NCBI GenBank assembly: GCA_000165345.1
Contig: CM000433.1
Coordinates: 864,001-928,000, forward strand
Reading direction: 5' to 3'
DNA length: 64,000 nucleotides
Numbering within the stretch: position 1 is the stretch's first letter; each line of letters starts with the position of its first letter. Position numbers and translations under genes: made by a program. A model generated the notes under the pieces. The model was given only the letters and a program-made list of their open reading frames with translations. It made no database searches and was not told where the DNA came from. This document shows, in pieces, positions 1,563 to 63,820 of the stretch.

Positions 1563-1594
1563 TGGCGCCACACAGAGCGGCAAATTTCGGCGGG
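1563..1594. promoter_or_regulatory. Bipartite E2F-like element (TGGCGCCA ... TTTCGGCGGG) in the divergent RPS12/dynactin-p25 promoter
   Basis: aaTGGCGCCAcacagagcggcaaaTTTCGGCGGGctcc is read directly. This GC-rich island sits inside roughly 80% A+T intergenic DNA. Confidence 0.5.
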
Positions 1595-1808
1595 CTCCAA
1601 CTTTTTTGAAATATAAAAAAACTATAGAAGTGAAAAAAATAGCAAGTGGCATTTTTAGATTGATTAATTTTCTTTTGTTTAATAAGATTAAAATATAATT
1701 GATATAAGGCATGTTTTTAGTGTGATGAAACTAATATATTGCTTTTGTTAAGTGTTAATAATTTATAAAAAAAAATATAAAGTTTGAAAAAAAAAATTGA
1801 GATATATA

Positions 1809-60425: not shown

Positions 60426-62924
60426 CTATATATTTCCCCCAATGCTCTTCCTAGATCCAACACTACTCCTTCTATAATTAAGGCTTTCCTCTAAACTGAA
60501 TCTTGGAGTTATTGATGCTCCTTTTTGTATTCTCAGTAATGTGTCTTCAACCACTTCCATTGAATCACCGTTAGAGTTGTATCCAACATGTTGTTGTTCA
60601 TCTTCTTCAATAGTATCAAATGCCTTTTTTGCCAGTAATCTTTGGAAGTTTTGCATTCCTATTTCAGCATCATCTAGAAGAGACATGCAATCATTCAAAA
60701 CTGCAATACTTTCCATTTGAATAAACTGTGACTGGTGACATTCATTTAATAGCTCATCAATATCAATATCAGGTTTTTTATTTTCTTGTATATTATTTGG
60801 ATCAATTTCTGCAACACCATTATCTTCAAAAGATATTACAGGAGTAGGAGAGCATAAATTGCTTGTATCACTTTTATCAACATCGCTATTTTCTTGTTCT
60901 CCCTCTTCTTTTCTAGAATTAGCTTTTGGTGATTCAAAATTCTGATTAATAGGAGTTTTAGTCGATTCTAATTCATTCAAAAGAATATTTGTAGATTTGA
61001 GAATATATTCAAAGTCTTCTGGCATAACATTAATACTTTCATGATCATCTTCCTGATTCTTATCAATTCCAGATGAGAATAATCTTGAATTCAACTCTTC
61101 TGCTTCCTCTAAAGCTTTATTTAATCTATTTATATTCAAATTCAAAAGACCAATTTTACTGATCAATTCATCTCTTTCTGAATTCACTGTTTGATACTTA
61201 TCTTCGTTATATTTAACTTCAGGAATCCATGACATTATATCATGTAATTCCAACTCCTTCTCGCTTTCATGTTCAAAAGCTTTATTCAAGAAATACTTAT
61301 GAATACCACTAATTGCTTTAATCATTAACTCGTCATCAATATAATTACATGAAGAACCAGACTGATCTCCTTCATTATCATTTTTTTGGTTAATGGATTT
61401 TTCGAATAATCTGATTTCCTCTTTTGATAGCTGAACAAGCCTCAAACAGATATTGCTGTCAACAGTCATTGTATCCAGCATTTTATTATAGTCTATTTTA
61501 ACATTGGACCCATTTTCTTGATCAAAATCTATGGTATCAAACCTATCTTCATGTTCTTGATAATCAATTAGCGGAATTTCACCTGGATCAAACTTCAATT
61601 CCTCAAACTCTGGGAGAGTTTCTTCTTTTTGTTGAACTTTAGATCTCCTTGAAGAAAATCGTACTTGTTTAGAATAATTATCATCAGAAGCATCAATGCT
61701 TTTTCTTAAAATACTTCCTGTAGTTCTTTGCTTTGCTTCTTCTCTTTTACTACTTTCACTTAATTCTTTCCTCTTTACAGTAATATCAACTTTTGGAGAT
61801 GGCCCAACACCAATCTCACTAGTTTTTGTCTCAATTAGTTCAACAACATCATCGCTTTGATTTTCTTGAAGAAGATTAATATCTCTAAGAGGAGTATCAC
61901 CACCAACCATTGCATCACAATGAATCTTTATTCCTTTTTGGTGAAATTGTTTCTGAACAGGTATATTTTGATTTACTATAGACTTCTCAGAGCGATTTTC
62001 AAGATAACTCCTGTTAGAATTAGCATAATTAGCTTTTTCATGTTCATGATTAAAATGATTTTGGCGATAATTTTGATTTACAAATTCACGATTAACCTCT
62101 TTGGAGCTTCCTACATGAATTAAGTTACCATTTACTGTTCTAACCATCTCTGATCTAAAGGATTTCAGTGGAGTTTCTATTGAATAGATACCATCATTTA
62201 CACTATAAACATTACTTTGATATTCTTCTGGTTTATTGTTGAATTCTATATTACTTCCATTGACTATAATATTCTCGTCATTTTTAGAACGACTAAAGTG
62301 CTGATCACGAATACTATTCAAATATTCCTCATGGTCTTGAGTTGTATCCTTATTAATTTTTGGCCAATAATCTTCCGTTCTAGGGAGAGGAGGTAGATTT
62401 GAAGATCCTTTTTCAGCTCTTTTTCTGAGAGAATTTTCCATAGATTTATCTAGAATATTAGCACCAACTTGTCTCATAGACATTGCTTTGCTTCTTGTAT
62501 TATACATGAATGTATTTTTAGAGTTATTATTAATGGAATGATTTGTTGGATAATTTCTTGATGATAAATCATCTTGGAATATATCAACATTTTCATTTTG
62601 GTGTAATATTCTAGAATGATTAATTTCATTTCTTTCATCAACAGATTCTTGTGGAATTAATGTTCTTTTTCTTCGAACTTTGGGGACTGCTCTCGCTTCC
62701 ATATTTTTATTATATCTATCTTGCATAATCATATTATTCATATTTGCTCTTGATAATCCGTGTTTTATAGGATTTGTTGACATATGTGGCTGATCTAGTT
62801 CCATTGGAGATTCGGTCATATTCCTATAATAATTTTCATCTGGTAAATTGATTGATTCCAAGTATGGACTTTCTGTACCATGTTCTCCGCCAATCGCAGA
62901 TCCATATCTTCTCTTTCTCGCCAT
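60426..62924 (-). CDS. Hypothetical low-complexity protein with coiled coils
   Basis: 832-aa ORF (MARKRRYGSAIGGEHG...). The protein is rich in N, S, E and K. Coiled-coil segments include DELISKIGLLNLNINRLNKALEEAEELNSRL. No recognisable catalytic domain. Confidence 0.5.
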   Translation of the reverse strand: MARKRRYGSAIGGEHGTESPYLESINLPDENYYRNMTESPMELDQPHMSTNPIKHGLSRANMNNMIMQDRYNKNMEARAVPKVRRKRTLIPQESVDERNEINHSRILHQNENVDIFQDDLSSRNYPTNHSINNNSKNTFMYNTRSKAMSMRQVGANILDKSMENSLRKRAEKGSSNLPPLPRTEDYWPKINKDTTQDHEEYLNSIRDQHFSRSKNDENIIVNGSNIEFNNKPEEYQSNVYSVNDGIYSIETPLKSFRSEMVRTVNGNLIHVGSSKEVNREFVNQNYRQNHFNHEHEKANYANSNRSYLENRSEKSIVNQNIPVQKQFHQKGIKIHCDAMVGGDTPLRDINLLQENQSDDVVELIETKTSEIGVGPSPKVDITVKRKELSESSKREEAKQRTTGSILRKSIDASDDNYSKQVRFSSRRSKVQQKEETLPEFEELKFDPGEIPLIDYQEHEDRFDTIDFDQENGSNVKIDYNKMLDTMTVDSNICLRLVQLSKEEIRLFEKSINQKNDNEGDQSGSSCNYIDDELMIKAISGIHKYFLNKAFEHESEKELELHDIMSWIPEVKYNEDKYQTVNSERDELISKIGLLNLNINRLNKALEEAEELNSRLFSSGIDKNQEDDHESINVMPEDFEYILKSTNILLNELESTKTPINQNFESPKANSRKEEGEQENSDVDKSDTSNLCSPTPVISFEDNGVAEIDPNNIQENKKPDIDIDELLNECHQSQFIQMESIAVLNDCMSLLDDAEIGMQNFQRLLAKKAFDTIEEDEQQHVGYNSNGDSMEVVEDTLLRIQKGASITPRFSLEESLNYRRSSVGSRKSIGGNI

Positions 62925-63820
62925 TTCTCACTTCAGAATTGAAGTTTATTATGGCGAGTAAATAAAAAGGGAAAAAAAAAAGAACTTGGACCAACTCTTT
63001 CCTGCAAATTTAATAAACTTCTTGAATATCAATTTCAGTATTCAACTGTCCTTTTACTTAATAACTTTGGTAATAAACGAATGAGTAATATATAAATATT
63101 TTTATAAATTTTTTAAAATATTACTTATATTACTATAAAAGTTTCTTTTTCTTCAGGAAATTTAATTCATTAATTCAGAATTTTTCACATTTATTTGTAT
63201 TCACACAGGACTGAATAACTTTATCAATATATACCACTTTCTTCCGAAATATTATGTTACAATTTATATTATTTCAATTATTTTTTTTTTTTTTCTTAAA
63301 TTAATTAATTTTTAAAAAATATATTATTATTATTATTATTAGTATTATTATTATTATTCACTAATTATTTATCTTTACATAATTTTTTACACGTCATATA
63401 TTTTTTTTGTTTGCGTGTGGGGGGCTATACCGGTGTTTGCATGCTTGTCCACTTGAAATTATTTTACTCTATAAATAATTCAAAGTAAAAAATTAATAAA
63501 CTATTAGATTAAATAAAAAAAATTTAATTAGGAAATGAATAAATACACACAATAAATAAAGTAATTTGGAAATTTTTATTTTTTATCCTAGTTATTTTTC
63601 AGATTTCTTTTCCTGATTTTTCAAGCTTTAATTCGTATTTTTCTAAATTTTATCTAAATTTTATTCATCCTCACAAAGTGGCGCTCATTGGCGGCAACTT
63701 TATGAAATTTTATCTTAGAAATAGAAATAGCCAAGAATATGCAATCATAAGAATAACTTGATGTGATGATTAATCAAAATAAAACAGATCGATTTGTGTG
63801 TAGTGTCCAAAAAGAAAGCA

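Follow-up and report, generated by a model that had tools for sequence, protein, structure and literature searches.

What are the short, G+C-rich boxes that recur from spacer to spacer in a 64,000-nucleotide stretch of Cryptosporidium parvum chromosome 5, and what do they mark? Cryptosporidium ranks among the major causes of diarrhoea in children, and little is understood of how it regulates its genes. The stretch, hereafter the window, comprises positions 864,001 to 928,000 of the forward strand of contig CM000433.1 (assembly GCA_000165345.1). An earlier note, made from the sequence alone, had described the boxes as a bipartite E2F-like element composed of TGGCGCC and GGCGGG and situated in front of unrelated housekeeping genes. 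Here we report that GC boxes mark nearly every promoter in this stretch, that they are the published E2F-like Motifs 3 and 4 of C. parvum, and that the observation is therefore a correct rediscovery and not the discovery of a new element. We interpret the sites, with a probability of roughly 80%, as putative binding sites for E2F/DP heterodimers that define promoters in a general and often bidirectional manner.

The identity of the window was established through its protein products, with seven of eight long open reading frame (ORF) products matching exactly C. parvum Iowa II / IOWA-ATCC chromosome 5 proteins. The window aligns to assembly CP044418.1, at roughly 839-903 kb, and its gene neighborhood spans cgd5_39xx to cgd5_40xx, with close relatives in C. 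hominis, C. meleagridis and C. tyzzeri. Gene models were obtained by transferring the IOWA-ATCC gene calls onto the window and by adding RPS12 and dynactin-5 (DCTN5) by hand, the latter as a three-exon gene, read from the sequence, with its ATG at 1810. For comparative analysis, nine syntenic loci anchored on Snf7, RanBP1 and AP-1 gamma were taken from C. felis, C. bovis, C. andersoni, C. ubiquitum, C. ryanae and C. muris. An E2F-like core was defined as GGCGC or GGCGG with strands collapsed; sites containing SGCGCS were designated palindromic (P) and those containing GGCGG were designated G-type (G).

Both box types are far more frequent than expected from local composition. Dinucleotide shuffling predicts 0.18 strand matches to TGGCGCC, with no more than 2 in any of 100 shuffles; the window has 16, which fall on ten GGCGCC sites. 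GGCGGG occurs 13 times against 0.58 expected. The shuffle comparison had been proposed beforehand and was run here on the window; it bears out the claim that TGGCGCC lies far above expectation, and the G+C content assumed for that claim, about 24%, needs correction to a measured 25.7%. Six of the ten GGCGCC sites constitute the full palindrome TGGCGCCA. Eight other all-G/C hexamers were checked, of which six are absent, GGGCCC occurs once and GCGCGC four times, and GGCGC and GGCGG are the most abundant and most intergenic-biased of the 16 strand-collapsed all-G/C pentamers in the window and the nine orthologous loci. An unbiased k-mer scan using a Markov expectation returned TGGCGCC, GGCGGG(C) and TTTGGCGG among the top non-low-complexity intergenic words, together with TGCATGCA, a known ApiAP2 motif. 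Scans for tRNA genes and Rfam families revealed no RNA gene in the window that accounts for the GC boxes.

The sequence of the boxes is in line with the E2F-like consensus suggested earlier. Flank profiles read nTGGCGCCA or TTTGGCGCCAAA for palindromic sites and TTTGGCGGGAA for G-type sites, with the half-site TTTGGCG common to both, and fit the canonical E2F/DP site. The window sites combine a core of the [C/G]GCGC[C/G] type with flanks that are T-rich on one side and A-rich on the other. This consensus agrees with published E2F/DP sites, both the T/A-flanked [C/G]GCGC[C/G] form and TTTGGCGGG. The TGGCGCC coordinates given in the earlier note (1563, 3092, 14696, 17043, 30105, 35789, 38035 and 41945) are right, 8104 being the minus-strand match of 8103, and an additional copy at 21812, within the AP-1 gamma coding sequence, had been overlooked. 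GTGGCGC at 63678, TGGCGCGCGCGCCA at 58344-58357 and the pairs at 6005-6033 and 49905-49941 are exactly where they had been placed; the further boxes reported with them exist, at positions that had been given 2-6 bp off and that we correct to 11870, 14623, 19377, 40781, 43860, 44577 and 52635.

The distribution of the boxes follows promoters. Intergenic DNA amounts to 27% of the window and holds 31 of the 46 GGCGS cores and eight of the ten GGCGCC sites (p=1e-8). Expressed as density, 31 cores in 17.3 kb of intergenic DNA compare with 15 in 46.7 kb of gene spans, an approximately 6-fold difference that is observed despite the lower G+C content of intergenic sequence (21.8% versus 27.1% in genic DNA). 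The boxes are thus mostly non-coding, as had been claimed, and an equal frequency in coding and intergenic DNA is contradicted. At least one core is present in ten of 11 divergent and eight of nine tandem spacers, or 18 of the 20 promoter-bearing spacers, and E2F-like cores are absent from all ten convergent (3'-3') spacers of the window. Sites lie a median of 314 bp from the nearest ATG (interquartile range 201-429 bp, range 91-768 bp), and for 77% of them this distance is 80-450 bp, where 100-450 bp from a gene start had been put forward earlier; no site in the window lies closer than 90 bp to an ATG, when 18% would be expected to do so under uniform placement. The frequent location in divergent promoters also holds, and the sites there tend to be central: the mean |relative position - 0.5| in divergent spacers is 0.114 in C. 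parvum (p=1.5e-4) and 0.176 in the other species (p=2.5e-4), against an expectation of 0.25.

Every comparison species shows an intergenic density of 1.2-2.4 cores/kb against 0-0.65/kb in genes, and in the gastric species the cores are intergenic in 12 of 13 (C. andersoni) and six of six (C. muris) instances. Pooling the seven species, C. parvum included, a core is found in 66 of 82 promoter-bearing spacers and in none of 39 convergent spacers; the associated Fisher p-value of 5e-19 was computed on 65/81 versus 0/39, with one C. parvum spacer containing sites left out. In terms of sites, 111 are located in 55.8 kb of promoter-bearing spacers and none in 8.9 kb of convergent spacers. In alignments of C. 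parvum with C. ubiquitum, core bases are 84% identical, compared to 64% for the rest of the spacers (p=0.002), and one of the apparent core losses in C. ubiquitum reflects an intact GAGAAGCCCGCCAAA that the aligner had shifted. It is the presence of a site that orthologous spacers conserve, and not its type, number or spacing; pairs are retained at 35759/35789 in C. ubiquitum and, in C. felis, at 6005-6033 and between DCTN5 and FSAF1.

The bipartite organization initially attributed to the element can be evaluated through the arrangement of neighboring boxes. A GGCGG box lies no more than 40 bp away from five of the 11 palindromic sites, whereas 0.84 such sites are expected when boxes are re-placed by permutation within their own spacers (p=5e-5). 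If any E2F-like neighbor is counted, 14 of 27 sites are paired in C. parvum against 2.7 expected, and pairs are likewise enriched in the other species (26/90 versus 9.8 expected). This excess, and the conservation in C. ubiquitum of the 31-bp pair at 35759/35789, are what would be predicted by a true bipartite composite, in which a TGGCGCCA half and a GGCGGG half are read together by two factors or a fixed complex and both are needed. The geometry of the pairs, however, is not that of a composite element: spacings vary (6, 10, 14, 16, 16, 25, 31, 32 and 39 bp), orientations are mixed, and pairs may be P+G, G+G (6005-6033 and 49905-49941) or P+P (58344-58357). Six of the 11 palindromic sites have no partner, eight spacers contain G-type boxes alone, and neither type nor number is maintained in orthologous spacers that keep a site. 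Furthermore, the C. parvum CCGCCAAAA at 49905 aligns to GGCGCCAAAG in C. ubiquitum, so that a GGCGG-type box is replaced by a GGCGCC-type box at the same position, which argues that the palindromic and GGCGGG boxes are interchangeable variants of one site type. Given the varying geometry, the unpaired sites and the half-site TTTGGCG shared by both types, the pairs are better described as loose homotypic clusters of a single site family. Pairing above chance therefore stands, while the obligate two-part architecture, which we consider very unlikely, was rejected on account of the variable spacing and orientation, the many unpaired sites and the interchange of box types between species.

Two further explanations concern the nature of the signal itself. 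In an A+T-rich genome any G/C word is conspicuous, and two GGCGCC copies lie inside gene spans, apparently without a promoter role; the boxes could conceivably be G+C-rich islands or coding remnants, a product of composition or chance devoid of sequence-specific function. We regard this explanation as having a negligible probability: the shuffles predict 0.18 and 0.58 occurrences where 16 and 13 are observed, other all-G/C hexamers and pentamers are for the most part rare and show no preference for intergenic DNA, cores are about 6-fold denser in the G+C-poorer compartment and missing from 39 convergent spacers of seven species, and core bases are conserved above background. On the basis of the shuffles, the Markov expectation within intergenic DNA and the all-G/C k-mer controls, chance and composition were rejected. 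The sites might also be recognized by a protein other than E2F, such as a C2H2 zinc-finger factor of the Sp1/KLF type binding GGCGGG as a GC box, or an ApiAP2 protein with G/C specificity, in which case the likeness to E2F sites would be coincidental. In favor of this rival, the GC-box core GGGCGG is present in three boxes (11871, 14623 and 47871), and ApiAP2 proteins do bind other G-rich upstream motifs of the parasite, such as the G-box. Those three boxes are nevertheless set against a total of 26 GGCGG boxes, ten of which present the E2F-type TTGGCGG flank, and on these counts the Sp1/KLF GC box was rejected. The palindromic SGCGCS core with T/A flanks is a textbook E2F/DP site, and a protein-binding microarray survey of C. 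parvum AP2-domain proteins assigned the E2F motif to a known non-AP2 factor, outside the AP2-bound set. The abundance of the motif moreover coincides phylogenetically with the retention of E2F/DP, in Cryptosporidium alone among Apicomplexa, and we deem a non-E2F binder unlikely.

Under the interpretation we favor, that of general E2F/DP promoter sites, sequences of the form TTTGGCGCC(AAA) or TTTGGCGG(G)AA would be bound by the winged-helix E2F/DP heterodimers of the parasite as the most likely binders. The sites are placed in mid-spacer, about 200-450 bp upstream of start codons, either alone or with one or two others in a loose homotypic cluster. One site or cluster would typically serve both genes of a divergent pair, a bidirectional use to which the symmetric core is suited. 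The element would operate as a general promoter-defining, open-chromatin element for most genes, and not as a cell-cycle-specific switch. We infer both the identity of the binder as E2F/DP and the activating direction of its effect.

Several considerations weigh against this interpretation. We found no published report of direct binding of Cryptosporidium E2F/DP proteins to the sites, and most regulatory components are without functional validation (2025 review). No pocket protein (Rb) is known in the parasite (Oberstaller 2013, PMC3734150), so its regulatory logic must differ from that of classical E2F. The preference for position relative to the ATG is modest (Kolmogorov-Smirnov p=0.04), one palindromic site is intronic (17043) and another coding (21812). 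The element is not universal either, because the promoter-bearing spacers at 27309-27543 and 17987-18105 contain no core, and neither do about 20% of promoter-bearing spacers across species. A wider version of the proposal, to which we assign somewhat less than an even chance, would have the element define promoters near-universally throughout the genus, with a central site or loose homotypic pair, in forms that are functionally interchangeable and turn over freely, opening a bidirectional nucleosome-free region for the genes on either side and predicting the start of transcription units. In a still bolder version, the frequent pairs may reflect two E2F/DP dimers that bind cooperatively, or two E2F paralogues that divide the labor between them.

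The sites precede unrelated housekeeping genes, as originally noted, and the gene labels used at the time (RPS12, adaptin, ESCRT and splicing factors) are backed by Pfam assignments to RPS12 (803-1234), Snf7/ESCRT-III (7253-7870), AP-1 gamma adaptin (20686-23574) and the splicing factors CTNNBL1 (8411-10176) and CWC25 (57042-58254). The divergent RPS12/DCTN5 spacer contains TGGCGCCA at 1563-1570 and GGCGGG at 1589-1594, 25 bp apart, a pair that spans 1563-1594; its distances to the ATG are 218-243 bp for DCTN5 (1810) and 333-358 bp for RPS12 (1234). Upstream of FSAF1 (ATG 3266), TGGCGCCA at 3092-3099 is accompanied by TTTGGCGG at 3129-3136; between DCTN5 and FSAF1, C. felis has a matching pair (CCCGCCAAA and GGCGCC, 32 bp apart), and the counterparts in C. 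bovis and C. andersoni are GGCGCCA and GCGCC. The C. felis annotation (L009 14022-15675) fuses dynactin-5 and FSAF1 into one gene of 366 amino acids; the seemingly genic CCCGCCAAA (14657) and GGCGCC (14689) of this species correspond to the C. parvum promoter pair at 3092-3136, which suggests that the 366-amino-acid gene is a mis-merged model. At the center of the divergent PRMT/BCD1 spacer lies the inverted pair TTTTGGCGGG ... CCGCCAAAA (6005-6033), with the same inverted pair in the orthologous spacer of C. felis (GGCGGG ... CCGCC, 15 bp) and a single GGCGGG in that of C. bovis. The divergent Snf7/CTNNBL1 spacer harbors TTGGCGCCA and CCCGCC, 14 bp apart (8102-8123), and its orthologs contain CCGCCAAA (C. 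felis), GGCGGG (C. bovis) and CCGCCC (C. andersoni). CCCGCCC occupies 11870-11876 in the divergent hyp347/VMP1 spacer, whose orthologous spacers have one E2F-like core each.

Three boxes (CCGCCCC at 14623, TGGCGCC at 14696 and GGCGGG at 14713) are found 616-706 bp upstream of the RGG/FoP ATG (15332), and paired sites, spaced 13 bp in C. felis and 10 bp in both C. bovis and C. ryanae, occupy the same relative place. The RGG/FoP gene itself (15332-17332, plus strand) is RGG-rich, with a FoP_duplication-type C-terminus, and presents a first exon of 37 nt; its first intron (15369-16519) extends over about 1.15 kb, very long by the standards of Cryptosporidium, and the E2F-like cluster is situated a further 620-700 bp upstream. 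Rfam detects no RNA gene in this intron. C. felis, C. bovis and C. ryanae retain the long distance that separates the VMP1 stop from the FoP coding exons. The divergent spacer between the BSD gene and a gene of 56 amino acids contains CCGCC at 19119 and CCCGCC at 19377 (19119-19382), and CGCGCC (20382-20387) lies 301 bp upstream of the AP-1 gamma ATG; in C. felis, C. ryanae and C. andersoni, AP1G is preceded by CCCGCC at a distance of 150-280 bp. TGGCGCC at 30105-30111 is at the center of the divergent DCP1/hyp1052 spacer, for which the orthologs show CCGCC and CGCGCC (C. felis), CCGCC and GGCGCCAAA (C. ryanae) or GGCGCCAAA (C. andersoni). The weakest member of the set, CGCGCCA at 33663-33669, is 338 bp upstream of the ATG of a PH-domain gene and is not kept in C. 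ubiquitum, where the aligned sequence is TGTGCTA.

In the second half of the window, GGCGG (35759) and TGGCGCC (35789) stand 31 bp apart upstream of an EF-hand/centrin gene (ATG 35964), and C. ubiquitum preserves both boxes with the same 31-bp spacing. The divergent hyp174/hyp589 spacer has TTGGCGCC at 38034-38041, identical in C. ubiquitum and represented by GGCGCC in C. ryanae and GGCGG in C. muris. The 589-amino-acid gene also hosts, in the intron between ORFs 38419-39219 and 39445-40524, a C/D-box small nucleolar RNA (snoRNA) at 39210-39292 on the plus strand (Rfam SNORD96, 68.6 bits versus a gathering score of 43), an intron-hosted snoRNA in an intron-poor genome. CCCGCC at 40781-40786, 363 bp upstream of RanBP1, is retained in C. 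ubiquitum and appears as GGCGG in C. muris. The divergent hydrolase/RING700 spacer includes CCCGCCAAA at 43860 and CCGCCAAA at 44577 (43860-44584), both of which are present in C. ubiquitum with identical flanks. An everted pair, CCGCCAAAA ... TTTGGCGG, with elements 32 bp apart (49905-49941), is found at the center of the divergent TM578/RING730 spacer, and CCCGCC (52635-52640) is 424 bp upstream of the hyp1204 ATG. The 287-bp divergent CWC25/hyp537 spacer contains the extended palindrome TGGCGCGCGCGCCA (58344-58357), with two overlapping SGCGCS cores. Finally, GTGGCGC and TTGGCGG, 10 bp apart (63678-63694), are located about 760 bp upstream of hyp832, the neighboring gene being beyond the window edge.

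Two sites could be mistaken for elements lying between convergent genes, and both were rejected as such. The TGGCGCCAAA at 17043-17052 falls within the 198-bp second intron (16967-17164) of the multi-exon RGG/FoP gene, as indicated by its splice sites and gene span; its role is uncertain, and the C. felis gene also holds an internal GGCGCC, which more distant species do not have. As for the TGGCGCCA at 41945-41952, it precedes by 91 bp a small conserved gene with two exons on the plus strand (42040-42570, ATG 42040). This gene has no Pfam family match and is called differently among C. parvum assemblies, as 67 or 43 amino acids; its peptides ALVKQMPPETPWDTVFSIIRSQFFAV and WGFTIFQFLIFIFFVQMQICKL are kept in C. 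ubiquitum, C. ryanae and C. muris. In the other species the spacer contains the conserved small ORF and an E2F-like core in all cases, and since the gene is unannotated in C. ubiquitum, C. ryanae and C. muris, the spacer is wrongly classed as convergent there.

The AP-1 gamma gene contains two coding copies, GGCGGG at 21541 (Gly-Gly) and TTTGGCGCCA at 21810-21819 (Leu-Ala-Pro). Codon alignment indicates that the Gly-Gly copy is not kept at the DNA level. The Leu-Ala-Pro at 21811 (TTG GCG CCA) is conserved as protein, with identical codons in C. felis, including the rare GCG, and with TTG GCA CCG in C. ryanae and ATA GCT CCT in C. andersoni. Functional E2F sites at 21541 and 21812 were hence rejected, the former copy not being conserved and the latter being common only to C. 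felis, and for the same reasons coding coincidence is the simpler explanation: both copies are most likely by-products of coding, outside the promoter system. The segment at 21799-21819 consists of GCGCATGCA, 2 bp and TTTGGCGCCA, and may constitute an internal or antisense promoter restricted to the C. parvum/C. felis lineage, although we prefer coding coincidence here too.

Other words are also over-represented in intergenic DNA. The word (A)TACCGG(CATT)/CCGGTA has ten intergenic copies against 0.9 expected, and ACACGT(A) has 12 against 1.1. TACCGGCATT occurs at 8094, 27404 and 47620, with further copies of the TACCGG word at 20387, 27459, 33741, 37982, 52653 and 63428. The sole divergent promoter without an E2F-like core (27309-27543, between a DEAD helicase and hyp418) contains two copies of TACCGG and one of ACGTGT. 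The ApiAP2-type TGCATGCA, ACGTGT and TACCGG occur as well in 3'-3' spacers (23609-23652, 47620-47664 and 56871-56886), TGCATGCA reaching by hand count about 2 per kb in 3'-3' spacers versus about 0.55 per kb in promoter-bearing ones. In 3'-3' spacers these words could correspond to promoters of antisense or long non-coding RNAs, or to 3' elements.

The general picture of E2F motifs in Cryptosporidium has already been published, and our analysis confirms it without adding a new concept. It contributes local detail that we did not find stated in the Oberstaller, Bankier and Mullapudi line of work, namely that the motifs are missing from 3'-3' spacers, lie centrally in divergent ones, pair loosely at 6-40 bp and show a genus-wide conserved presence with interchange of the two box types. 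Because the motif separates promoter-bearing from 3'-3' spacers in seven species, it can assist in annotating unit starts and small genes that have been missed; its strict absence from 3'-3' spacers would let it predict the starts of transcription units, including those of unannotated small genes like the one at 42040. The analysis also provides defined, conserved candidate sites for work on E2F/DP binding and mutagenesis at 6005-6033, 35759-35795, 49905-49941 and 58344-58357.

The closest known system is that of the parasite itself. Oberstaller 2013 (PMC3734150) defined C. parvum E2F-like Motif 3 as DTTGSCGCCH, with core [C/G]GCGC[G/C], and E2F-like Motif 4 as TTTGGCGGGAAV, with core GGCGGG, and found an upstream over-representation for 114 (Motif 3) and 47 (Motif 4) out of 200 expression clusters, ribosomal protein genes included. 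For the E2F-like motif family as a whole the count is 161 of 200 clusters (2014 ApiAP2 paper), and a GGCG-core motif had been identified upstream of glycolytic genes (Mullapudi et al. 2007, PMC1779779); according to Oberstaller 2013 (PMC3734150), the motif was first noticed by Bankier et al. 2003 on chromosome 6. The window boxes share with Motifs 3 and 4 the organism, the two consensus sequences, the upstream excess and the association with housekeeping and ribosomal protein genes, and the cluster tables of Oberstaller 2013 include the window genes cgd5_3950 (RanBP1), cgd5_3990 and cgd5_4040; we see no essential difference between them. The earlier note had correctly stated that an E2F-like upstream motif was described for Cryptosporidium, the window being from C. 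parvum, but its view that such an element is unusual before housekeeping genes is not supported for this organism, with the published motifs lying upstream of most expression clusters and E2F as the top motif in chromatin accessibility data. These data, from the assay for transposase-accessible chromatin with sequencing (ATAC-seq) on C. parvum sporozoites, show E2F as the most prominent motif in peaks, of which more than half are bidirectional promoters, and reveal the E2F motif also in the intervals that separate genes within polycistronic transcripts (Xiao et al., bioRxiv 10.1101/2025.01.17.633476). The bidirectional promoters match the central placement of sites in the divergent spacers of the window, the motifs in the short tandem spacers at 2911-3265 and 41804-42039 resemble the inter-gene regions of polycistrons, and we infer that the window sites overlap ATAC-seq peaks.

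Cryptosporidium has two E2F and two DP genes and is the sole apicomplexan genus to retain E2F/DP (2025 review); the genes given in the literature, cgd1_1560, cgd6_1430, cgd7_3650 and cgd8_1850, are on other chromosomes. Outside this genus, the CDE/CHR element of metazoan G2/M promoters, bound by the DREAM complex, is truly bipartite, and its CDE half resembles the window boxes in being a GGCGG-like E2F half-site. It requires, however, a CHR (TTYGAA) 4 nt downstream, and a DREAM-type arrangement was rejected for the window sites, which have no forward CHR at 3-6 nt and one loose reverse-strand match; TTYGAA is not enriched, with three occurrences within 30 bp of sites against 3.9 expected. The E2F/DP sites of animals and plants (TTTSGCGCS, and TTTCCCGCC or TTTGGCGGG in Arabidopsis) present the same symmetric [C/G]GCGC[C/G] or GGCGGG core, T-rich 5' and A-rich 3' flanks, promoter-proximal location and frequent pairs per promoter as those described here. 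In those organisms they are classically associated with cell-cycle and DNA-replication genes under Rb-family control, whereas in Cryptosporidium they precede most genes.

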